The translations under genes and the position numbers were made by a program. This document shows, piece after piece, positions 9,101-34,837 of a DNA stretch of 64,000 nucleotides. The notes below the pieces were generated by a model. It saw nothing but the letters and a program-made list of their open reading frames with translations, was not told where the DNA came from and made no database searches. The DNA is from Methylococcaceae bacterium UBA2778 (GTDB lineage Bacteria > Pseudomonadota > Gammaproteobacteria > Methylococcales > UBA2778). Within the stretch, counting starts at the first letter, position 1; every line of letters starts with the position of its first letter. The stretch is taken from assembly GCA_002352385.1 (NCBI GenBank), contig DEII01000121.1, forward strand, positions 19,959 through 83,958, read 5' to 3'.

Positions 9101-9584
9101 CGACACCGACGGCACCGTCACCCGCATCCGCATCCGCGCCACGACGATACGCAACTGGGATCGACAAGAGCTGCTGGTCCCCAACAAGGAGTTCATTACC
9201 GGTAGGCTTCTGAACTGGTCACTGTCGGACCAGGTGACGCGGTTGTTGATCCCGGTCGGCGTCGCCTACGGCAGCGATGTCGCAAGAACCAAATCCTTGC
9301 TGGCGGACGCCGCTGAGGAGAACGAGCGGGTCCTGACCGACCCGGCACCCACGGTTACCTTCGACGGCTTTGGTGACAACGCGCTCGCACTGTCACTGCG
9401 CTGCTATGTTGAGTTGATCGATTATCGGTTGAGCACCATCACGGCACTGAACGAAGCCATCAACCAAAAATTCACCGACGCGGGCATCTGCATCGCATTT
9501 CCACAGCGGGATGTCCATCTGGATTTCCGCCAGCCGCTGGATGTCAGAATCCAGCGCAAACCTCCGGCGCCCGGTGGAAAATAA
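6171..9584 (+). CDS. MscK/KefA-like large mechanosensitive channel (MscS family)
   Basis: 1137 aa: signal peptide, a long periplasmic coiled-coil region, multiple TM helices and a C-terminal MscS core (GVGIGFGLQEIVANFISGLIILFERPIRVGDVVTIGDTDGTVTRIRIRATTIRNWDRQELLVPN). Confidence 0.9.
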   Translation: MIKRAILLLIGMALLVAAQIAAVSPAAPATTVRGSTIQLSPDSIKAKIAGIEDNASLDKADKSALTATYQKALSYLESARSNEAAADAFMQAIKQAPIDTARLEKKIVEIRAMPEPDPSLLSKETLAELDQRLLSEKANLAAVEAKLADFEQQLEAERGRPAAARERLIELKRQQDELADAVKKLKAAGDSSPENNAKRWELEARTLALRSEMRMLDQELLSQSMRIALLTAERDKTAVSAGRLGLLVRQLEEAVNRRRGAAAEQTLAETAVAQRESAGKHPLVQDLAKKNSDLSDTLKRLTVLLDDASAGDDVANKQAKQIQKEFSSTREKLEFAGITVALGHILAAQRRALPDRHELEKKINQNEAMIANTSLAKIQNEEEKKRLNNIDAFVAELTAKLPPDPAETIRDDLRGLVRQRKELLKRTVATQKAYVRALGELDFAQRRLLEEVAAYDEFLSKRLLWLRSAPPPNLERLLAIPDQLAWLLSPAHWLDVTEVLVAQAKRSPLIGLAGALFAALLVMSRPMCRRLQVLGHKVGNPVTDRFSYTLKALGLTLLLAMPWPMLLATLGRQLQSALEATEFSRLIGAGLLSIVLPYLNLRTLSVLCVSDGVAAAHFRWPEHSLKLVRHEIRLMMMLFLPAAFVAVVIIEHDAAEMGGGLGRFCFLLVMLSLGLFFFRLFHSKTGALVAFNTRHPDTLLARMNKLWLTLGVAVPVVLALLSILGFVYTAVILTASLIDSLWLLFGLVLIQQLGVRWLLLTRGKLAMQAAKERRAAQRARQEESAADGTPTDGVSMEEAEPEIDLASLNQESRKLLNIVVVVLGITGLWIIWSDVLPALGILDTIELWRYETMESGEQRTVAVTLADLCVAILIAVVTVVAAKRLPSLLEIILLRRVEMDSGSRYTATTLFNYVIVAIGIVLFFKKLGGSWSQIQWLVAALGVGIGFGLQEIVANFISGLIILFERPIRVGDVVTIGDTDGTVTRIRIRATTIRNWDRQELLVPNKEFITGRLLNWSLSDQVTRLLIPVGVAYGSDVARTKSLLADAAEENERVLTDPAPTVTFDGFGDNALALSLRCYVELIDYRLSTITALNEAINQKFTDAGICIAFPQRDVHLDFRQPLDVRIQRKPPAPGGK

Positions 9585-16429: not shown

Positions 16430-17243
16430 CTACGATCGCTACGCGGTCTTCGGACACCCTATCGGGCACAGTCGATCTCCCACGATTCATCGCCATTTCG
16501 CCGAACAGACCGGTCAGGCGAATATGCGGTACACGGCGCAGGACGTGACGGCCGAAACGTTCGATCAAGCGGTCGAACGTTTTTTCGGTGAGGGCGGAAA
16601 AGGATTGAACTGCACCGTGCCGCTCAAAGAGTTGGCATGGTCCATCGCTGACCGCAGAAGCGAGCGCGCGAAGCGCTGCCGGGCCGTCAATACACTGGCA
16701 ATGCAGGATGGTGCGCTGTATGGCGACAATACCGACGGCATCGGGCTGGTGCGCGATCTGACAGTAAACCAGCAGATGACCCTGACCGGAAAGAGCATTC
16801 TGATCCTGGGGGCCGGCGGAGCAAGCCGGGGCATACTCGGACCACTGCTGGAGCAACGTCCGAAACGGCTGGTGATTGCCAACCGCACCGTGGCCAAGGC
16901 GGTCGATCTGGCCGAATCGTATCGGGACATGGGCGAGGTTGCCCCCAGCAGCTTTGCCGATCTCGAAGGACAGAGCTTCGACCTGATCTTCAACGCCACC
17001 GCCGCCAGCCTCCACGGCGCCTTGCCGCCTCTGCCCGACGGCATCATCGCCGCCTCCGGCTGCTGTTACGATTTGGCTTACGGCTCTCAGCCGACCGCCT
17101 TCGTCCGCTGGGGGCAGCAGCAACACGCCGCTCGAAGCCTGGACGGTCTCGGCATGCTGGTCGAACAGGCCGCCGAGACATTCCTGCTCTGGCGCGGCGT
17201 CCGACCTGAAACCGCTCCCGTGATCGAGTATCTGCGCCGCTGA
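16422..17243 (+). CDS. aroE: Shikimate dehydrogenase
   Basis: The internal ATG at 16422 gives MSDYDRYAVFGHPIGHSRSPTIHRHFAEQTG, the canonical AroE N-terminus, followed by GLNCTVPLKE, NTDGIG and the GAGGASRG NADP motif. The track ORF start at 16356 lies inside the upstream gene. Confidence 0.9.
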   Translation: MSDYDRYAVFGHPIGHSRSPTIHRHFAEQTGQANMRYTAQDVTAETFDQAVERFFGEGGKGLNCTVPLKELAWSIADRRSERAKRCRAVNTLAMQDGALYGDNTDGIGLVRDLTVNQQMTLTGKSILILGAGGASRGILGPLLEQRPKRLVIANRTVAKAVDLAESYRDMGEVAPSSFADLEGQSFDLIFNATAASLHGALPPLPDGIIAASGCCYDLAYGSQPTAFVRWGQQQHAARSLDGLGMLVEQAAETFLLWRGVRPETAPVIEYLRR

Positions 17244-17255
17244 AGCCGGCGGTCT

Positions 17256-17293
17256 CCCGTAGGTTGCGGTTGAGGAACGAAACTCAACAAAAC
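17256..17293. repeat. REP-like hairpin element (GTAGGTTG...GTTGAGGAACGAAACTCAAC)
   Basis: CCCGTAGGTTGCGGTTGAGGAACGAAACTCAACAAAAC lies between convergent aroE and the dipeptidase gene, with the stem GTTGAG/CTCAAC. A related CCGTAGGGTGGATGCC...GGCGATCCGCC unit occurs at 9741-9778. Confidence 0.5.
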
Positions 17294-17378
17294 AGCTTCG
17301 ATACGTGCCTAACCGTTGAGTTGATCTTCCACATATCGAGTTCCCGGCCGGGCGGCTCGCCGGTTGCTCCTGCCGAGA

Positions 17379-18101
17379 TCACTCTTCCAGTGATTCGACG
17401 ACGAAATCGAAATAGGTATCGGGATACGGTTCGTTCTTCAAGGTGAAGTGCCACCACTCTTTCGGAAAGTTTCGAAACCCGTTTTCTTGCATGACTTCCA
17501 GCAGCCGCAGACGGTTCAAGCGCTGGACCGTGGTGACAAACGGGCTGTCGGTGTGAGAACGACGATCGAAATAATCGAACGTCGTGCCCATATCGACCGG
17601 CTGCCATTCGGTGAAGCCGCTGTTTTGGTAAGATCGGACCAGACCGACATCCACCGTACTCCCACGGCTGTGGCTGGACCGCTCCGCAATATAACCCTGC
17701 TTGAATAATTCGGACTTGCGCACGTTCGGATAATAGGCTGTTTTCGTTTTCCGGTCCGAACGATCCGCCGCCCAGCGGACGAAATGATACACCGCGCGCT
17801 GCGGCCGATAGCAGTCATAAACGATCAAAGCCAATCCGCGGGATCGAAGAATCCGATTGATTCGCACCAGGCGCGTCGCAGTCGGTCGCGTGAGCAGGCA
17901 AATGGGCGCCTCATACCCATCGATGGGCGTGCCGACAAAATTGTCGGGGCCGGCATATCGCATATCGAGCATGATGGTCGGGTCCAATTCGGTCAGCGAA
18001 ACAAAAGTCTGTCGCTCTTTCGGAATGCTACTGCAGCCGGCCAAGCCCAAGAAGACTGCTGCCAACGCCGACAGGAACAGAGCACACAATCTGAATCGCA
18101 T
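17379..18101 (-). CDS. D-alanyl-D-alanine dipeptidase (VanX/DdpX, peptidase M15D), lipoprotein
   Basis: 240 aa with a lipobox (FLGLAGCSS). Carries RYAGPDNFVG, the SSHSRGSTVDV zinc site and a C-terminal EWWHFT motif. Confidence 0.85.
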   Translation of the reverse strand: MRFRLCALFLSALAAVFLGLAGCSSIPKERQTFVSLTELDPTIMLDMRYAGPDNFVGTPIDGYEAPICLLTRPTATRLVRINRILRSRGLALIVYDCYRPQRAVYHFVRWAADRSDRKTKTAYYPNVRKSELFKQGYIAERSSHSRGSTVDVGLVRSYQNSGFTEWQPVDMGTTFDYFDRRSHTDSPFVTTVQRLNRLRLLEVMQENGFRNFPKEWWHFTLKNEPYPDTYFDFVVESLEE

Positions 18102-18156
18102 GGTGCTACGGGGTTTTCTTCGATATCAGCTGGTCGAGGATCAGTCCGTGAATCAG

Positions 18157-18320
18157 CGTTCCCCCGCAGCTCCTGGTGACGAGGCTCTGCCTCGGCGCCT
18201 TACCCTGCGGCTCCGCCGCATCATCAATTGCTGAGCCGCTGCCAGGCGGGCATTGGCCTCCCGTTGGCCTCTGCTCCCGGTTTCCCGTGGCGGAGCCTCG
18301 GTGCCAGAAAAAAAAGAGGT
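18157..18320 (-). repeat. About 150-nt dispersed intergenic element, copy A (inverted relative to copy B)
   Basis: The reverse complement (...CTCTTTTTTTTCTGGCACCGAGGCTCCGCC...GGGAGCAGAGGCCAACGGGAGGCCAATGCCCGCCTGGCAGCGGCTCAGCAATTGATGATGCGGCGGAGCCGCAGGGTAAGGCGCCGAGG) aligns by eye with 25027-25180. The track's spurious peptides from the two loci are also similar (EQRPTGGQCPPGSGS vs EQRPTSGQCRQGSGS). Confidence 0.7.
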
Positions 18321-18396
18321 TGCACTGCATGCAGCATAGGGGGGGGTGAGGTTTAAGCGCCGCCGGATCGAACAGCGGTCCGGTCTCAAACAACCG

Positions 18397-19146
18397 TCAA
18401 TGCAGCGTCACATCCTTGCCGCCCGCCCCACAACATTTTTTGTATTTCTTGCCGCTGCCGCAGGGGTCGTTGCGGCCGACTTTGTCCGTGCCCACAGGGG
18501 ATGTCGGCGGCGCTCCCATTTTCCGCCGGTATTCATCCAGGGCGTCGCCAAACATCTGGATGTTCTCCACCGCCAGCGGTACCAGCGTAATCAAGCGGGC
18601 GAGCATGCCCAGCTTGAACTCCTCGTCACTCATATCTTCCGGAAAGTCGGCCTTGATCGTGTCGAAATTGTCCATTGCGTCGAAATCTTCCTCCACCAGT
18701 GCCTGAATGATGCCGACGCTGTTGACCACCGGGCCCGACTCCTCGTTCAAATCCTCGGCGACGATGCCGCTCGTCCAGATATCGATGCGCAGCCTCAGCC
18801 CCTGCAAAAAACCGTAGCACCACTCCATCAATGGCTCCAGGTCCGCCTCGCTCAGCCGGCTCATGTCATAGGGGTAGTGCAGTTTCTTTTGCAGGCGCAG
18901 CATATTGTAATGATTGTAGGCATTCATAAGCGCGCCCATTAGCGTATTGGCCAGCTCGATATCGGCGAATTCGGGCATCTCGCCGTCGAAGATCTCGGGC
19001 AGCCATTGGCTGGGAGGGATGATACCGGGTGTAATGGCAACCGCATAGAGGTAGCCTTCCAGTTCATCGATGCTCATGCGCTCAGCCGGAGTCGCCGCCG
19101 CAGCGAACAGTTTTTCCAGCTCGTGCCGGTTGGATTTGGTCAACAT
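18397..19146 (-). CDS. YecA/UPF0149-family protein with C-terminal SEC-C metal-binding motif
   Basis: C-terminus GRNDPCGSGKKYKKCCG is a SEC-C motif, and the N-terminal ELEGYLYAVAITPG fits the UPF0149 family. An alternative start at 19191 would add 15 aa. Confidence 0.8.
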   Translation of the reverse strand: MLTKSNRHELEKLFAAAATPAERMSIDELEGYLYAVAITPGIIPPSQWLPEIFDGEMPEFADIELANTLMGALMNAYNHYNMLRLQKKLHYPYDMSRLSEADLEPLMEWCYGFLQGLRLRIDIWTSGIVAEDLNEESGPVVNSVGIIQALVEEDFDAMDNFDTIKADFPEDMSDEEFKLGMLARLITLVPLAVENIQMFGDALDEYRRKMGAPPTSPVGTDKVGRNDPCGSGKKYKKCCGAGGKDVTLH

Positions 19147-19524
19147 CGTTTCTTTCTCTCGGGTTGTCGAGCCGTGTATGTCGTGCAGCATGAGCCGCGG
19201 CTGGAGCGTTGCGCCTCCGCTTTCGGTTTCTATCCGATCGGTGAGCGGTCGTCCGGATGGCTCGGCGTCTGCGACGACCGCAGACGATCATTATGACAAC
19301 AATCAATCGGCCGATCAAAGACAGTCGGGGGTCAGGCAGTCCGAAAACGGGATGGATGCCTGACGATGCCTCGATTTCAACAGCGAAAACGATTTATGCT
19401 ATAGTGAAGCTGCTCGAGCTTTTCCGGGTGGCCGGCGCGTCACGAGCAGTTGCCCTGGAAGAAAAAATCGCACCGAAAGGCAGGCTGCACGGCGGTTCCC
19501 GCGCCTTGTACAAATGAAAAATCC

Positions 19525-19818
19525 ATGATGGAAATCACCTTTTCACAACGCATTGCCGCACCCGACGGTGTGCTTATCCAGATGCTCGACGGCGAGGCCG
19601 TCCTGCTCAATCTGGACACCGAATCCTATTTCGGTCTGGACGAGGTAGGCGCTCGCATGTGGACGCTGCTGACCGAATCGGACTCGATCCAAACGGCCTA
19701 TGAGGCCCTGCTGAAGGAGTACGATGTTACGCCGGAGCAGCTGCGCGCTGATCTGATCGGTCTGATCGATCGCTTGGCGGAGCAAGGGTTGATCAAGCTC
19801 GATGCGACGATGGAATGA
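19525..19818 (+). CDS. PqqD-family RiPP recognition protein (lasso peptide B1)
   Basis: 97 aa from the ATG at 19525: MMEITFSQRIAAPDGVLIQMLDGEAVLLNLDTESYFGLDEVGARMWTLL... is a typical PqqD/RRE fold sequence. Overlaps the downstream B2 gene by 17 nt. Confidence 0.85.
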   Translation: MMEITFSQRIAAPDGVLIQMLDGEAVLLNLDTESYFGLDEVGARMWTLLTESDSIQTAYEALLKEYDVTPEQLRADLIGLIDRLAEQGLIKLDATME

Positions 19819-20272
19819 ATGCCGGGCTCTGTCTGGCCGGGAAAAACGCTTTCTGTTCGCCGCCTTCATCGTGCAGTCGCTGATCATTCCGGCGCTGCGA
19901 ATCTGGGGTTTTCGGCGGGTCCACGCCTTTCTGCACCGAACGGCGCCAAAGCCACACGCTCTGCCGTCGACGCAGGCAGGGGACGAGCATCCAGGCATCG
20001 AAGAGCTCAGAAACCTCGGGCACTTGGTCAACGCAGCGGCCAATAATAGCCCCATCCGCACCGCCTGCCTCACGCGCTCCCTGGCGCTCTGGTGGTTGCT
20101 GCGGTGCCGGGGGATCGCCTGCGATCTGCGCATCGGTGTCAGTAATGACTCGGGCGAGTTCTCGGCCCATGCGTGGGTGGAATACGAGGGGGCGGTGATC
20201 AATGACAGTCCCGGGTCGATTGGGCGGTTTGCGGCTTTCGATGGGGGCTTGTCCCCTTTAGAGCGGTTATGA
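19802..20272 (+). CDS. Lasso peptide leader protease (B2, transglutaminase-like Cys protease)
   Basis: 156 aa with CLTRSLALWWLL (catalytic Cys region) and FSAHAWVEYEGAVIND (His region), as in lasso B-protein C-terminal domains. ATGA overlap with the cyclase gene. Confidence 0.85.
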   Translation: MRRWNECRALSGREKRFLFAAFIVQSLIIPALRIWGFRRVHAFLHRTAPKPHALPSTQAGDEHPGIEELRNLGHLVNAAANNSPIRTACLTRSLALWWLLRCRGIACDLRIGVSNDSGEFSAHAWVEYEGAVINDSPGSIGRFAAFDGGLSPLERL

Positions 20273-22167
20273 GCGGCATCTTTGGCATCGTCAATTTCGA
20301 CGGTCGTCCGGTTCAAGAGCAAGACCTGTCTCCCATGCTGGCCACTCTGAAACGCCGGGGACCGGACGGGTCTGGGATATGGATCAAAGGTCCGGTGGGG
20401 CTGGGTCATGCCTTGATGGTAACGACGCCTGAGTCTTGTGGAGATAAGCAGCCGGTTGTCGATCGAACAGGCATGTTTTCCTTGACGTTTGCTGGGCGAA
20501 TAGATAACAGGACAGAGTTATCAGCCGCGCTTGAAATTAATAGCCCGCCCCTGAATGACCTTTCCGATGCGGAGTTGGTAATGGAATGCTATAAGCGGTG
20601 GGGAATCGGTTGTTTGCAGCATATCGTAGGCGATTTCGCATTGGCGCTTTGGGATGGCCGAAATCAGCAAATATTCTGCGCCCGGGATGTGCTCGGCATC
20701 AAGCCATTTTTTTATTATTTTGGCAAGGGTACTTTTCGTTTTGCTTCTGAAATTCGACCGGTGATCGAACATGCGCCGATTCAAGTGAGACCAAACGAAA
20801 AGGTCGTTGCAGAGTATCTCGCCGACACACTTCGAACAGTTGACGAGACGCTTTATGTAGATATTTATCGCTTGCCTCCAGGCTGCTATCTCATTGTCAC
20901 CCGCACCGGTCTGAGGATTACCCGGTATTGGGAAGTCACTGGCCTGAAGCCCATCCGCTATCGGACAGATGACGAATACACGGAGCATTTTTTGACGCTG
21001 TTTCGAGAGGCTGTGAATGCCCGTTTACGCACTGTTGGAGGAGTTGCTTCTGAATTAAGTGGTGGTATTGACTCTTCATCAGTCGTTGCCATGATCTCGC
21101 AGCTCCAACACGAGGGAAACATTCCACGCAGTGATTTTAGCACACAATCCCTGATATTCCCTGGCCTAGAGTGTGACGAAAGCGACTACATCCGCGCCGT
21201 TATCGACCGCTGCGGTATAAAGAAACATCGGGCTTGGAGGCCGACACCTTATGACTATGAATGGCATCGAAACCAGGTGAAACGGTATTGGGATATTCCT
21301 GACTATCCAAATGGGGCGATGGCTCATCAGTTTCGCGAGATTCTTGGCAAAGAGGGCGTCAATGTTGTGCTGACAGGGCTAGGCGGCGATGAATGGTTTG
21401 CCGGAAGTCGATACGATTACGCAGACCTCATTCGACAAGGCCGACTCCTGTCGCTTTTCTCCAAGCTGCGGGCCGAGAAGGACTCTTTGGGCTCTGGGAC
21501 GCGCGATGTTCTGCGATATGGTATACGCCCATTGATCCCGGAGCGATTTATCGCGTTGCTTCGGTCACTCAAGGCAAATTCATACGAATCGCATTATCCA
21601 TGGATTTCGAGAACGCTGTTTGATCAAAGCGCATTGAGCGAACGTTTACGGCAACCACCGAACTGGCGGATGCTTCCAACGTACGCACAGACAGAGATGT
21701 TTAGCCGCGTAACGAGCATAATCCAAGTACATGCCATCGAAATGGAGGAACGTTCTGCAGCAGAGCTGGGGCTTGAATTGAGGCATCCGTTTCAGGATCG
21801 CCGCATAGCAGAGTTTGGACTTGCCCTACCTGAAGAGCAGAGAAGGCGTAATGGCATAGGAAAATATGTGATTAGAAAGGCCATGCAGCCTTTGCTTCCA
21901 CGCCTGGTTCTTTCTCGAACTTCCAAGGCCGAATTTTCGGCAGTGTTTATGGAGGCTATTGAAGCACAAGGGAGTCGCGCCTTTGAGAATATGGCCATCG
22001 CTGAAGCGGGCTGGATAAACCGCGACGAAGCCATCAGGATGTATAAGAGGGTGAAAACCGAATATGCTTCTGGCGACCGCGATTGTTGCCAGTACCTCTG
22101 GCCTTTATGGCGTATTTATGGTATGAATATTTGGTATCAGGAAGTGCTTTTAGACTCTCGAGTCTAA
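20269..22167 (+). CDS. Lasso peptide macrolactam synthetase (C protein, asparagine-synthetase B-like)
   Basis: 632 aa. The N-terminus MSGIFGIVNFDGRPV fits a Ntn glutaminase-like domain, and the central SELSGGIDSSSVV PP-loop ATP pyrophosphatase motif fits asparagine synthetase homologues. Confidence 0.9.
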   Translation: MSGIFGIVNFDGRPVQEQDLSPMLATLKRRGPDGSGIWIKGPVGLGHALMVTTPESCGDKQPVVDRTGMFSLTFAGRIDNRTELSAALEINSPPLNDLSDAELVMECYKRWGIGCLQHIVGDFALALWDGRNQQIFCARDVLGIKPFFYYFGKGTFRFASEIRPVIEHAPIQVRPNEKVVAEYLADTLRTVDETLYVDIYRLPPGCYLIVTRTGLRITRYWEVTGLKPIRYRTDDEYTEHFLTLFREAVNARLRTVGGVASELSGGIDSSSVVAMISQLQHEGNIPRSDFSTQSLIFPGLECDESDYIRAVIDRCGIKKHRAWRPTPYDYEWHRNQVKRYWDIPDYPNGAMAHQFREILGKEGVNVVLTGLGGDEWFAGSRYDYADLIRQGRLLSLFSKLRAEKDSLGSGTRDVLRYGIRPLIPERFIALLRSLKANSYESHYPWISRTLFDQSALSERLRQPPNWRMLPTYAQTEMFSRVTSIIQVHAIEMEERSAAELGLELRHPFQDRRIAEFGLALPEEQRRRNGIGKYVIRKAMQPLLPRLVLSRTSKAEFSAVFMEAIEAQGSRAFENMAIAEAGWINRDEAIRMYKRVKTEYASGDRDCCQYLWPLWRIYGMNIWYQEVLLDSRV

Positions 22168-22459
22168 AACTGATGAAGGATGCCAATGATTTAAATACAG
22201 TTTTTTGTATAGGAGTGCCGTTACGTTGGAATGAACATTCTTCAATCGGCACGATTAGGATGCATTTAGGCGTAGCCCGCATTCCGTGCTTACTCTATAA
22301 ATCGATGCGCTAGCATGCTTTTTAGTACAGGAATAAACAATGACTTGTGCGCTCAACGTGTTCAATTTTCGTCTTAGAAAAAGCAATCGATAAGTTCGAG
22401 CGCGGAAGCCCCTCCCCCCGGATGCACGTCAATTCTAAATCCACAAGAGGAGTCTCAAA

Positions 22460-22633
22460 ATGCAAAATTCAAATGAACACCCAGAAAAGCGACATATGGA
22501 GATTGAGCCTCGAAAGAAGCGGAAGTACCGGGGGCCTCTCATACAGAAATATGGTAATATTTCTGAACTGACCCAGATGCCGGGCGGCAGTGGAGTGCCA
22601 GAAGGCGCCAGTGGGAAAAACCATCCCCTGTAA
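22460..22633 (+). CDS. Lasso peptide precursor (A peptide), 57 aa
   Basis: Below the track's apparent length cutoff (no ORF shorter than 60 aa is listed). AAGAGGAG Shine-Dalgarno 7 nt upstream of the ATG. Translation: MQNSNEHPEKRHMEIEPRKKRKYRGPLIQKYGNISELTQMPGGSGVPEGASGKNHPL. Y23/P26/I28/G32/T38 fit the leader motif YxxPxLx3Gx5Tx, placing Thr at -2. The only acidic core residue, E48, is core position 9. Confidence 0.7.
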   Translation: MQNSNEHPEKRHMEIEPRKKRKYRGPLIQKYGNISELTQMPGGSGVPEGASGKNHPL

Positions 22634-22922
22634 TATACATTGGTACAAGACGTCAATGGCCGCTTCCAGAAATATGCCCCTAGGATAAATTGCTCGTTCC
22701 CGGTAGTTTGGTGGGGACGGGCATAGTCCGCGTTCCGCGCTTCTCAATAAATCGATAACTTCGTGCTCCTCCTGAATGACGACATCGAGCACAAATACAC
22801 AAACGGTGGAGTCATTTTTCTCCAGGGAAAAACTGATCAGTCGGGTAAAGCGCGGATGGCTGGTTGTGCCCTATGGGATTCACTTTGGAAAGGTCTAACT
22901 CAGAGGTTTTGAACCAATCGAA

Positions 22923-23906
22923 TTGAGAGAGCGGCCATTGACATTCTATCGGTTATGTGACTTTTTAATCGAGAGCAACGTCATACTCTCCGGCCTTTTG
23001 GCCGCAGGCAAGGCGGATACACGACAAACCTTCCGGTTGCGCCCGGTGCGACCGTCATTTCTAGTCATTGATAACTGGTTACGCCATCAGAAGCTTCCTG
23101 ATGGCACTGAATGGCTGTCGGTTGCTCGCTTGAAGGGCGAATATCTCCTGCGCTTTACCAACTTGGCCGACTTCACGGTCTCGGCAGATGGTTGGCAGAT
23201 TAACTGCTACCCCCACGGGAACATCGTCAACGAGACCGCTAGCCACCTGTTGCTGGACCAGGTGATTCCGGCAGTGTTAGCCCATCAAGGCGAATTGGTT
23301 CTGCATGCCTCCGGCGTGGTCAGCGATTACGGCGCCATCGCCTTCTTGGGCGAGTCAGGATCTGGAAAGTCGACCCTGTGCGCCGGCTTCAATCGGGCCG
23401 GGTTTCCGCAATTGAGCGATGACTTTCTTCTCCTGCGCGCGAGCAAGGATGGCTTCGTGGCTGTCCCTAGTTATCCGGGGCTGCGTCTGTGGCCAGACAG
23501 CAGAACCGCTCTGAAATGGGAAGCGGCCGATACGACGCCCGTTGCCCATTACACGACCAAGGAGCGCTTGGATACCTCCTCCCACGGTCTTCCATTCTGC
23601 TCGGTCCCCGTGCCAATCACGACACTGTTTGTACTCACTTCTCCTGACGAAACGATGAAAACAGACCAAGTGAGTATAGAACCGCTCACACACCAAGACG
23701 CCTTTATGGCATTGCTGAAATACTCTTTTCGTCTGGATATTAGTGATCGGGAACGCAATAAGAAAGCATTTCGGGACATTGCCGAGACTGTATCCAAACT
23801 GAAGCTCTTTCGGTTATCGTATCCCCGCAAAATGGCAATGTTACCGCAAGTGCGAACGGCGATTTTGGAGCACCTTGCAACTGAGGAGAGAGCGATGGAA
23901 AAATAG
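22923..23906 (+). CDS. HPr kinase/phosphorylase-like protein (candidate lasso peptide tailoring kinase)
   Basis: 327 aa with LHASGVVSDYGAIAFLGESGSGKSTLCAGF, a P-loop in the context typical of the HprK C-terminal domain. Lies directly downstream of the precursor. TTG start as given in the track. Confidence 0.75.
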   Translation: MRERPLTFYRLCDFLIESNVILSGLLAAGKADTRQTFRLRPVRPSFLVIDNWLRHQKLPDGTEWLSVARLKGEYLLRFTNLADFTVSADGWQINCYPHGNIVNETASHLLLDQVIPAVLAHQGELVLHASGVVSDYGAIAFLGESGSGKSTLCAGFNRAGFPQLSDDFLLLRASKDGFVAVPSYPGLRLWPDSRTALKWEAADTTPVAHYTTKERLDTSSHGLPFCSVPVPITTLFVLTSPDETMKTDQVSIEPLTHQDAFMALLKYSFRLDISDRERNKKAFRDIAETVSKLKLFRLSYPRKMAMLPQVRTAILEHLATEERAMEK

Positions 23907-24061
23907 AGGGGGATCAGCGATACTTTTTGATGTCACGCGGTCTGAGGTCTTCCTTCCACATCCCCAAGCTCCTTCGCCAATCCTGCTACGTTGCCTTGTC
24001 CTGTCCCCCGTGTCTCCGGCGGTATATCCCGCTCACCGTCCTCGAACAAGGCTTTCACCCG

Positions 24062-24352
24062 TCACGCACCCCACTCCCAAAACCCTTGCCTCCCCGTCGC
24101 CGGCACCGGCTCCACCAGCCGGGCAGCACAGACCACGACGCCGCGCGGCAGGGTATCGAAGCTGCAGCCGGCGCGCGCCAGGGCCTCTTCGATCTTCGGT
24201 CTGCCCCGGTAGCGTTTGATATCCCTGCTGGTCTTGGCGGCGTGGATCGCCAGCGGTCCGCGGTAGTGGGTGGACCATGAGCGAGTCTCGAACCGTTTGG
24301 CGCCGATGGCGACCAGGGTGGCCCATGGCTGCCAGAGTGTGATTGCTTTCAT
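24062..24352 (-). CDS. ASCH-domain protein
   Basis: The internal ATG at 24352 gives MKAITLWQPWATLVAIGAKRFETRSWSTHYRGPLAIHAAK..., the usual N-terminus of small ASCH proteins. The track ORF extends to 24451. Confidence 0.65.
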   Translation of the reverse strand: MKAITLWQPWATLVAIGAKRFETRSWSTHYRGPLAIHAAKTSRDIKRYRGRPKIEEALARAGCSFDTLPRGVVVCAARLVEPVPATGRQGFWEWGA

Positions 24353-25026
24353 CGGAAGAGCTGAAAAAAGGGATGGTTTGGACCAAGCGAAAGAGATTTC
24401 TCTTTTCGTTGGGAGCTCGAGCACTCTAGCGGATAGAATGGCCTCGGTCAATGCGGCAGCGGGCGATCCGACAACGGTTGGGCTCTCTACCGCTTTCCGC
24501 AGCTTTTCTATTGATAATCGAATCTTTATGTTCGATTATGAGGCCGTGAACGGTGCGGAATTCATCAGGAGGGTCAAGCTCATTGGCAACCGCAACCGCA
24601 ACCGCAACGGCGTCGATGTCTGTCTTGTCGGCTGTCATGGAAAAGGCAGCTGTGCAGTGACGGATGATAATGTCCGAGAGTTCGAAGAGCGGAGCGAGGG
24701 TTGCATTCGAGGAATCTTTGATCAATGTATGGGTTTGATTTACACTGCAACTACTGCAGGAGGCGTGGTCTGTCCTCGTTTTCATGTGTTCCTTTTTTGG
24801 TCCTATGTTATGGCTGTTTTGTTCGGTTCGATTGGCTGTCGCTGCTGCATGTGTCAGTTGATTGATAGGCGGTCGATTGAGCGGGCAAAGAACTCTTCGG
24901 AAATAGTGCCAAGAAAATACACCGTATCATGGCGGAACCGCTTCGCGTTCGGCCCGACGCCCAGGCCTGCTAACTTAATGGCATTGAGGTGAGCGGGCAA
25001 AGGCGTGCCGGTTCCCCCGGTCTATC

Positions 25027-25180
25027 TCTCTTTTTCTGGCGCCGAGGCGCTGCCTCGATGCTTTCGTCTTGGCGGTTCCGCCGCCGAAATCGGGGAGCAA
25101 AGACCAACAAGCGGTCAATGCCGACAGGGCAGCGGCTCCAGACGTGGTGATGCGGCGGAGCTGCTGCGGCTAAGTGCCGA
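25027..25180 (+). repeat. About 150-nt dispersed intergenic element, copy B
   Basis: CTCTTTTTCTGGCGCCGAGGCGCTGCC...GGGGAGCAAAGACCAACAAGCGGTCAATGCCGACAGGGCAGCGGCTCCAGACGTGGTGATGCGGCGGAGCTGCTGCGGCTAAGTGCCGAAAAGG. Homologous to copy A, with an internal insertion of about 30 nt. Confidence 0.7.
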
Positions 25181-25202
25181 AAAGGAACTCAGCCATTTTG
25201 AT

Positions 25203-25236
25203 CCCCTCATCCCAGCCTTCTCCCGGACGGAGAAGG
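25203..25236 (-). repeat. REP-like unit CTCCGGGAGAAGG..GGGATGAGGG, copy 1
   Basis: The reverse complement of CCCCTCATCCCAGCCTTCTCCCGGACGGAGAAGG matches the units at 32235 and 62548. Confidence 0.55.
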
Positions 25237-25298
25237 AGCGCTCCATCCTGATTCGACAGCATTGATTTGGAGGGTGGGCGCGCGCGGGAGCTGCGGAC

Positions 25299-25396
25299 TC
25301 TGGAATCGGGAAAAAGGAATCACGGATCAGATAGGGATGAGTCAATTTTTTTCATTCCCACTGTCTGATCCCTGATTCCCGATCCCTGTTTCCTGG
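25299..25396. repeat. GGGATCAG-type palindromic repeat, copy 4
   Basis: TCTGGAATCGGGAAAAAGGAATCACGGATCAGATAGGGA, an AT-rich loop, then TCCCACTGTCTGATCCCTGATTCCCGATCCCTGTTTCC. The arms are imperfect reverse complements. Confidence 0.7.
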
Positions 25397-25466
25397 TACT
25401 GGATCACATGAAACTGTTGCACAACAAAACGCTCGCTGCTCGGCAGCTGCAATTCCAAAAAGCACA

Positions 25467-27017
25467 ATGACACGAACCAAACGATCCAGCAACCTGAAAC
25501 TGTGTCGGGTGGCCATCGATACCTATCGCGAAAACGTCGCCTATATGCACCGCGAATGCCCGATCTACCGGGCTGAGGGGTTTCAGGCCTTGTCGAAGAT
25601 CGAGGTGAGCGCCGATGGCCGCCGCATCCAGGCTCTTTTGAACGTCGTCGACGACGATGGAATCGTCGGTACCGATGGTCTGGGGCTGTCGGAGCAGGCG
25701 TTCGATCAACTGGGGCTGGAGGCCGGCGGACTGGTTCAGGTCGCCCAGGCCGAACCGCCGGGCTCGATGGATGCGGTCCGCAGCAAAATCGCCGGTGAGC
25801 GGCTCACGCAGGAAGATTTCCGGGCGATCGCGAAGGATATCGCCGCGCACCGCTACTCCAAAATGGAGATGGCGGCATTTCTGGTTGCCGCGGGCCAGGC
25901 CGGTCTGGACCGCGATGAAGTGCTCTATCTCACCCGCGCCATGACCGAGACCGGCGAACGGCTGAATTGGCACGAACCGCTGGTGGCCGACAAGCATTGC
26001 ATTGGCGGCATTCCGGGCAATCGCACATCCATGCTGGTGGTGCCCATCGTTGCTGCCCACGGCATGTTGATCCCCAAGACCTCCAGCCGGGCCATCACTT
26101 CGCCGGCCGGAACCGCGGATACGATGGAGATGCTCGCCACGGTCGATCTGCCGATCGAGCGGCTGCATGAGATCGTCCGCATGCATCGCGGCTGCGTCGC
26201 CTGGGGCGGCAACGCCAATCTTGCACCGGTCGACGATATTCTCATTTCGGTGGAACGGCCGTTGGGCATCGACTCTCCAAGCCAGATGGTGGCTTCCATT
26301 CTCTCCAAGAAACTGGCGGCCGGTTCGACCCATCTGCTCATCGACATTCCGGTCGGCCCCAGCGCCAAGGTGCGTCACATGCGCTCCGCTATGCAGCTGC
26401 GCAAACTGTTCGAGTTTGTCGGCGACCGGCTGGGACTGCACACCGAGGTGATGATCACCGATGGTCGACAGCCCATCGGCCGCGGCATCGGGCCGGTACT
26501 GGAGGCGCGCGATGTGATGCAGGTTCTCAAAAACGATCCCGAGGCACCGTTCGATCTGCGGCAGAAAGCGCTGCGCCTGGCCGGCCGTGTGATCGAATTC
26601 GATCCGGACGTGCGCGGCGGTCAGGGCTATGCCATCGCCCGCGACATTCTCGAGTCCGGACGTGCACTGGCGAAAATGGATGCGATCGTCAAAGCGCAGG
26701 GCGCCAGTCAGGCACAGCATGCGACCGGCCGCTTCACCTACGATGTCAATGCCGAGCGCAGCGGCGTCGTCAGCCGCATCGACAATTATTTTCTGGCGCG
26801 GGTGGCGCGGACGGCGGGTGCGCCGATGGATCACGGCGCAGGCGTCACCCTGCTGAAAAAAATAGGCGACAGCGCCAAGAAAGACGAATGCCTCTATCGG
26901 GTCTATGCGGAATTCCCGGCCGACTTCGATTTCGCCAAGAATCTCAACAGGCAGCACGGCAGCGGGTATACGATCGGCGAGGAGAGCGACATACTCGAAC
27001 CTTATGTCGAATTTTGA
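25467..27017 (+). CDS. Thymidine phosphorylase family protein (long, AMP-phosphorylase-like type)
   Basis: 516 aa with an N-terminal extra domain, then [52 protein letters not shown] and SKKLAAG, motifs of the glycosyl-transferase family 3 pyrimidine nucleoside phosphorylases. Confidence 0.88.
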
Positions 27018-32089: not shown

Positions 32090-32234
32090 TGGTATCGAAA
32101 ACTCCCGAACCGGCTGGACCGGTCACTTAATATTCAAACAGAATATACCATCGATGCATCTATCCGCTCCCCCTATCACCAATCAGCCCTCGTCAGTGGG
32201 AAAAGGCTGCGAGCGGTCAGTGGTTCCACAGTTT

Positions 32235-34591: not shown

Positions 34592-34675
34592 TCACCAATC
34601 AGCACCTGTCAACGGAAAAGGCAGCGACCACCCCGTGGTTCCAGCCTTCTTCCACTGACAGGTGCTGATTGGTGA
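34592..34675. repeat. Perfect 20-bp inverted repeat separated by 44 nt
   Basis: TCACCAATCAGCACCTGTCA (34592-34611) and TGACAGGTGCTGATTGGTGA (34656-34675) are exact reverse complements. Located in the non-coding region between the ECF sigma gene and the CIS operon. Confidence 0.75.
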
Positions 34676-34837
34676 CAAGGGGGGAAACGAATGGATACGC
34701 TGCAATTGAAATTCATCCCCATCATTAATCCTTCATGTATTTGATCTAGATCAAATCGTTTTTCCTTTTTAAGGTTAAAATTGCAACTATCTCTATAGAA
34801 GCGAATCCTTAGCCGTCCTATGAAACGAGGCAAGCGG

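Follow-up and report, generated by a model that had tools for sequence, protein, structure and literature searches.

Between genes for a lasso cyclase and an HprK-like kinase, the 64,000-nucleotide stretch of DNA analysed here (the window) carries a reading frame of 57 amino acids, which raises the question of whether it encodes the precursor of a lasso peptide and, if so, which residue starts the mature product and closes its ring. The frame (22460..22633, stop codon included; this and the other genes and sites described below lie on the plus strand unless stated) translates as MQNSNEHPEKRHMEIEPRKKRKYRGPLIQKYGNISELTQMPGGSGVPEGASGKNHPL. The ORF, its residues and its Shine-Dalgarno sequence AAGAGGAG (22445..22452, 7 nt upstream of the precursor ATG, read directly from the sequence) are as an initial annotation had described them. 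Y23, P26, I28, G32 and T38 match the leader motif YxxPxLx3Gx5Tx, with Q39 next. The predicted leader comprises residues 1-39 (22460..22576) and contains Tyr(-17), Pro(-14), Ile(-12), Gly(-8), Thr(-2) and Gln(-1); the predicted core MPGGSGVPEGASGKNHPL comprises residues 40-57 (22577..22630), an assignment based on conservation in relatives and on the pattern of synonymous changes. In this 18-residue C-terminal part, which follows T38-Q39, E48 is the sole acidic residue, and its codon (22601..22603; core Glu9) would specify the isopeptide acceptor.

In a six-frame translation of the 64 kb, the pattern Y..P.[LIVM]...G.....T. was matched once, by the precursor ORF, while 200 mononucleotide shuffles gave a mean of 0.19 matches per window, or 0.015 when the match also had to have a short tail in which one of positions 7-9 is acidic. 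The protein is called exactly by public gene callers (NCBI, JGI, ENA and Logan), and it was missing from the ORF track because its 57 residues fall below the usual 60-aa cut-off. An overlapping minus-strand ORF (22469-22792) matched no NCBIfam family. Against the curated precursor models, the peptide scored 22.5 bits with NF033528 (lasso_cyano; E 8e-5), under the cut-off of 33, and 13.8 bits with NF033521 (lasso_leader_L3), under the cut-off of 19; it is therefore related to both subfamilies and a member of neither. Leaderless translation that starts at the internal ATG can be set aside: the initiator Met, being followed by Pro, would be removed, and the Pro thus exposed is a residue unseen at position 1. 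In summary, this is a short ORF beside B1, B2 and C genes, with the leader motif and with Glu9 combined with a first residue other than Pro, as in lasso precursors.

The genes around the precursor are those of a lasso cluster. B1 (19525..19818), a PqqD-like RiPP recognition element of 97 aa by the public call (present in public record L081), matches Pfam PqqD with an E value of 5.7e-18 and NCBIfam lasso_PqqD_Bac, under its cut-off, with 8e-15. B2 (19802..20272), which overlaps B1 by 17 nt, is a transglutaminase-like leader peptidase (Pfam Transglut_core3, E 1.3e-25) that scores 92.4 bits against NCBIfam lasso_biosyn_B2, over the cut-off of 33. C (20269..22167), overlapping B2 by 4 nt, is an asparagine-synthetase-like lasso cyclase with Pfam Asn_synthase and GATase_7 domains; it fits best to NF033535, the model for lasso isopeptide cyclases (lass_lactam_cya), at 476 bits and short of the cut-off of 525. 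K (22923..23906; in the public gene call it starts at 22938 and has 322 aa) is an HprK-related peptide kinase, with a partial match to NCBIfam HprK_rel_A that lies under the cut-off (E 1.2e-12). The order in the window is B1-B2-C-A-K, the precursor (A) lying between the cyclase and the HprK-like kinase, and B1, B2 and C are joined by overlapping stop and start codons.

In the reading that we propose, the ORF would encode the precursor (A) from which the adjoining B1-B2-C genes make a class II lasso peptide. From the known biochemistry of lasso peptides we infer how it would be processed: where it is cut, how large its ring is, and that it is threaded and phosphorylated. Binding of the leader by B1 would depend on Tyr(-17), Pro(-14) and Ile(-12), and B2 would cut after Thr(-2)-Gln(-1) to release MPGGSGVPEGASGKNHPL. 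The ATP-dependent cyclase C would then form an isopeptide bond between the Met1 amine and the Glu9 side chain, and the tail GASGKNHPL would be threaded through the resulting macrolactam ring of nine residues. The HprK-like K probably acts before the leader is removed, phosphorylating a Ser of the precursor, the conserved candidates being Ser5 in the ring and Ser12 in the tail.

A search with the 57-aa peptide as a single sequence returned only the peptide itself, and the closest cyclase to that of the window is 47% identical. A cyclase profile, run against a single genome of each species, gave 80 loci; about 40 of them encode a peptide with the same leader motif, mostly immediately downstream of C with a K homologue next. 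Homologues of the precursor surfaced once a profile had been built from 24 precursors beside related cyclases; this profile retrieved 120 more family members. The precursors that accompany the three best matches of the window cyclase all sit between C and K. Moreover, the nearest cyclase relatives carry TQ/MPGGS...EG.SGK.H precursors (here and below the slash marks the predicted cut), in agreement with the precursor call of the initial annotation. P0222 (locus L083), with the sequence ...YGALEELTQ/MPGGSLQTEGASGKNHKK..., is 64% identical to the window peptide; it lies 4 nt within the end of the gene for a cyclase that is 43% identical to the window C. The precursors of the three best cyclase matches read TQ/MPGGSISVEGHSGKIHKK... 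(P0003), TQ/MPGGSTDYEGASGKIHKK... (P0005) and TQ/MGGSGGGGDGQSS... (P0004), and a metagenome scan added that of L084.

A word-index-free HMMER scan of 1.84 billion representatives of 50% identity clusters returned 41 proteins, about 20 of which have Met-first x/MPGGS...EG.SGK.H cores, so the Met1 core of the window is not a one-off. The P0246 locus (L093), which was examined, has the C-A-K order again, as do all six contigs with enough downstream sequence. The core MPGGSxxxEGxSGKxH is common to P0222/L083, L084, L085, L087, L093 and the P0241-P0278 members, and precursors encoded directly after cyclases that are 43-47% identical to the window C keep M-P-G-G-S-x3-E-G-A-S-G-K-x-H. The window peptide has the same pattern throughout: Met after T-x, then Pro2-Gly3-Gly4-Ser5 and Glu9-Gly10-x-Ser12-Gly13-Lys14-x-His16, encoded between C and K. 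Met-first precursors are thus a widespread and previously undescribed family within a type of lasso system that is itself already known.

The codons of the window and L083 precursors were compared from Y23 on. Of the 16 core residues M40-H55, 13 are the same in both peptides, and at 8 of these 13 the codons differ, among them a Ser whose codon has switched from AGT to TCT; divergence has been free at core positions 6-8 and, apart from the motif residues, in the leader. This pattern agrees with the plus frame of the precursor. By the codon comparison, the core is under purifying selection, and in residue identity it is, on this comparison, more conserved than the enzymes that would make it (43-47%). 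That the core is nearly unchanged across cyclases at this distance points to a specific, conserved molecular target. As judged from its sequence, the ORF is a real, translated and functionally constrained peptide gene.

Several members of the wider family differ from the window peptide in ways worth recording. The precursors at L083 (722-922), L084 (481-693), L085 (5952-6146) and L087 (5952-6146) carry long Lys/Pro/Arg-rich tails after the core, for example HKKIRPHKPKPKPKLM; the window peptide has no such tail and ends in ...NHPL, so the tail is a variable appendage. A sister group of precursors (L003, L037, L088, L090, L092 and P0271) ends in -CL, as FKMPCL, MMPCL, MMACL, NMTCL, LVCL or ATCL. 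PrmA/PRMT-like methyltransferase genes occur at L086 (4192-5316), L090 (3407-4570), L092 (4376-5566) and L094 (313-1470), between the precursor and kinase genes in L090, L092 and L094 and after the kinase gene in L086, which suggests that these related clusters form a further tailoring subfamily. P0251 (199 aa) and P0256 (268 aa) each contain four tandem lasso-leader-like modules (Y-E-x-P-x-[LAV]-x3-G-x5-T...) and look like multi-core or concatenated precursors. In the archaeon Halosimplex salinum (L027), two adjacent precursors at 9113 and 9273 read TE/TGSGNNKQGD... and TR/TGSGTNKVGD...; in the standard register the first acidic residue of both is at position 10, implying a shifted cut or an unusual ring size.

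Where, then, does the core begin? The initial annotation had placed the cut before M40 from the leader register, and the homologues, with the same Tyr, Pro, Ile and Thr spacing, bear this out. With Met as the first residue, Tyr, Pro, Ile and Thr stand at -17, -14, -12 and -2, as in every relative found, and YxxPxL at -17 to -12 is described as constant in lasso leaders (PMC10368454). When cores are counted from the residue after T-x, Asp or Glu occupies position 7, 8 or 9 in 114 of the 120 profile members. Their first residue is Gly in 47, Gln in 30, Ser in 17, Ala in 9, Glu in 7, Met in 4, Phe in 3, Leu in 2 and Lys in 1, and in the relatives that begin with Gln, Glu, Lys, Asn, Phe or Leu a later core start is impossible. 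Within the subfamily having the [DE]-G-x-x-G motif, the acidic residue is at position 9 in 29 of 38 members. Those with the acidic residue at 8 begin with Ser, Ala or Gly, and those with it at 9 begin with Met (23/29), Ala (3), Leu, Asn or Ser; Met is the dominant position-1 residue of the nine-spaced members.

The initial annotation had pointed to homologues with the cleavage register at a Gly as the place where its Met1 prediction could fail. In P0263, TQ/GPGGSIADGASGM (GPGGSIAD), Gly replaces Met, there is one fewer variable residue and the acceptor is at position 8; downstream of the precursor come a methyltransferase gene and a K homologue that is 34% identical. P0263 keeps the cut right after T-Q, since beginning its core at position 3 would leave a ring of only six residues, and the check comes out for the predicted register. 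To our knowledge, a six-residue ring is not among the ring sizes of lasso peptides. We consider the Met1-Glu9 ring quite likely, and it is nearly as likely that the whole reading holds, namely that the window ORF is a lasso precursor whose Met-first mature peptide closes a nine-residue Met1-Glu9 ring.

The strongest competitor, which the initial annotation had already raised, is a cut after Pro41, with the core GGSGVPEGASGKNHPL and a seven-residue Gly1-Glu7 ring (Gly42-Glu48). This core is compatible with the sequence: nearly all nine-spaced members have Gly, Ser or Ala at position 3, and since these are also canonical first residues, a Gly3-Glu9 ring could be drawn in most of them. Gly moreover serves as isopeptide donor more often than any other residue, other members of the cyclase clade (the QSLINRE... 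group) are predicted to make seven-residue rings, and the tail GASGKNHPL, which consists of small residues with bulky plug residues absent, would fit a smaller ring better; in a nine-residue ring, small tail residues would be weak steric locks. Against this, starting at Gly42 displaces Thr from -2 to -4, as had been noted initially, and YxxPxL to -19 to -14, whereas the spacing in relatives is constant (PMC10368454). The residue at -2 would become Met, Ala, Asn, Leu or Ser in different members, although it is supposed to be critical, and the corresponding Gly of the eight-spaced cousins (SGGSxxx[DE]) is an internal ring residue. The same shift applied to P0263 leads to the six-residue ring discussed above. 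With the relatives disfavouring it in these ways, we regard the seven-residue ring as improbable. The cyclases themselves were also compared for residues that track Met1 versus small first residues, and a single column (K227) separated the two groups; given this one column and a window C equally distant (44-47%) from every other cyclase, we cannot name a specificity determinant.

A start at Met1 had also been called unusual in the initial annotation, and this is only partly so. It is uncommon, and our search of the searchable literature found no characterised natural Met1 lasso peptide; it is not exceptional, as peptides starting with Trp, Tyr, Phe and Glu have been characterised. The list of first residues given there (Gly, Ala, Ser, Cys and Leu) is incomplete, Pro alone being reported absent (preprint 10.1101/2020.11.25.399105; PMC13632552).

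Returning to the Met1-Glu9 peptide, is the cluster active and its product threaded? A second and still less probable alternative holds that the precursor is real and conserved and that the cluster is silent or decaying here, or that the product is an unthreaded, branched-cyclic peptide. Some features of the locus would fit it. No transporter, exporter or immunity gene adjoins the cluster in the window, while relatives L085, L087 and L089 have ABC-2 transporter genes in theirs. AT-rich gaps of about 290 nt lie on either side of A, compared with 5-110 nt in relatives, and the GC content over 21000-23000 (the 3' end of C, A and the flanking gaps) drops to 46-51%, against about 55-60% in the surrounding genes; in the gaps themselves it is as low as 46%, with about 57% around them. 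Promoter and terminator signals in 19100-24300 are at or under shuffle expectation, and the plug residues of the tail are small. Yet all five ORFs of the cluster are intact, the kinase keeps every residue of its catalytic motif, a strong Shine-Dalgarno precedes the precursor and, as the codon comparison indicates, the core is under purifying selection.

The weakest alternative, that this frame is open by chance and that the true precursor of the cluster is encoded elsewhere, could appeal to the single-sequence search that returned the ORF alone and to its scores under the NCBIfam cut-offs, but it is effectively refuted by the bias of substitutions to synonymous ones, the dozens of homologues recovered by profile searches and the subfamily comparison, the ORF being besides the sole motif match in 64 kb and its slot between C and K being conserved in related loci.

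The gaps around A contain possible control elements. Three copies of a ATAAATCGATAA-like motif flank A within 22293..22766 (22297-22308, 22382-22393 and 22747-22758, by motif scan, in the slightly wider stretches 22293-22308, 22382-22401 and 22743-22766); the motif has 6 matches in the 64 kb, 3 of them inside 460 nt, where chance would give 2.8 per whole window. These copies are possibly operator sites, that is, candidate binding sites for a regulator. The predicted RNA folds of both intergenic gaps were no more stable than those of shuffled sequences, and an Rfam scan of 17000-26500 gave nothing credible. Further out, an imperfect inverted-repeat pair (18207-18312 and 25031-25164; 91 nt at 75% and 27 nt at 85% complementarity) encloses a 6.8-kb segment with a UPF0149/SEC-C gene, the entire lasso cluster and an ASCH-domain gene. 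More short intergenic repeats pair 25181-25230 with 62553-62602 and 32169-32209 with 34642-34682, suggesting a dispersed repeat family rather than the ends of an island.

What would the kinase do to this peptide? The K sequence LHASGVVSDYGAIAFLGESGSGKSTLCAGFNRAGFPQLSDD contains the motif H-x14-G-x2-G-x-G-K-S-x15-D-D, spaced exactly as H148-G163-G166-G168-K169-S170-D186-D187 of BsfK, residues that matter by mutagenesis in that enzyme (PMC10368454). In related clusters the K homologues come after the precursor and have weak Hpr_kinase_C matches. A search by sequence found no solved lasso cyclase or peptide kinase. Because the window core ends in Leu, a C-terminal Ser cannot be the target of K, and in most family members too the last residue is not Ser. 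BsfK, assisted by B1, phosphorylates ring Ser3 of leader-bearing BsfA (PMC10368454). Position 3 of the window core is Gly and the conserved hydroxyl residues of the family are Ser5 and Ser12, so the phospho-site, if any, differs from that of BsfA and may be either of these.

Modifications of the pseudomycoidin tail help to hold the thread (PMC6993621), and by analogy it is a reasonable idea that a phosphoserine might lock a slim tail in a nine-residue ring. One can go further and suppose that the Met-first nine-spaced peptides are a distinct constrained subfamily in which Met1 is selected, the core is more conserved than the enzymes and the slim tail is locked by a kinase-installed phosphoserine (Ser12 or Ser5). 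Taken whole, this is a doubtful though not negligible proposal. If the phosphoserine lock were true, phosphorylation would be part of the lasso topology and not a decoration.

If the Met1-Glu9 ring is confirmed, the window peptide would be the first characterised natural Met-donor lasso peptide among those that we found in the literature, and it would add a kinase-linked family whose phospho-site cannot be the usual C-terminal Ser. The family also offers a natural panel of position-1 variants (Met, Leu, Ala, Asn, Ser and Gly) for the study of cyclase tolerance and ring-size control. The understanding of how lasso peptides are made is unchanged by this precursor.

Known systems resemble the window cluster in different parts. 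Fusilassin and cellulassin have Trp1-Glu9 rings and halolassin a Tyr1-Glu8 ring (preprint 10.1101/2020.11.25.399105), palassoptides start with Phe1 and Glu1 (PMC13632552), and one cyclase takes every position-1 residue except Pro (PMC13632552); together, these examples indicate that cyclases can use bulky N-termini. As predicted for the window peptide, none of these peptides uses a small residue as isopeptide donor, and the ring of fusilassin has nine residues and closes on Glu9. In contrast to the window, these systems are actinobacterial, have no kinase and carry hydrophobic, bulky tails, and none has Met1 or the MPGGS...EGASGK core. The searchable literature held no mention of an MPGGS or EGASGK motif. 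The best-scoring curated models for the window A and C are NF033528 (lasso_cyano) and the cyanobacterial-type cyclase NF033535, and lasso_cyano-type loci (L007, L008 and L023) share the leader shape and the C-A-K order; the cyanobacterial cores, for example QGGPAFRVD...ITS, are unrelated to that of the window and often end in Ser.

With respect to phosphorylation, paeninodin, the substrates of ThcoK and SyanK, and pseudomycoidin are lasso peptides phosphorylated at the C-terminus (PMC10368454, PMC6993621). Clusters of the paeninodin type encode, like the window, an HPr-kinase-like enzyme, which in their case acts on the precursor before leader removal; these kinases modify a C-terminal Ser, whereas the window core ends in ...NHPL. 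The BsfA/BsfK system of Bradymonas sediminis (PMC10368454) differs from the window in having N and D genes, which are absent here, and in its precursor, where BsfA has Ile(-2), Gly1 and a Gly1-Asp8 ring in place of Thr(-2), Met1 and the predicted Met1-Glu9 ring. It shares with the window a split B1/B2 cluster with an HprK-like kinase, an identical spacing of the kinase motif H...G..G.GKS...DD, and a precursor with YxxPxL at -17 to -12 and a C-terminal residue other than Ser (PMC10368454).
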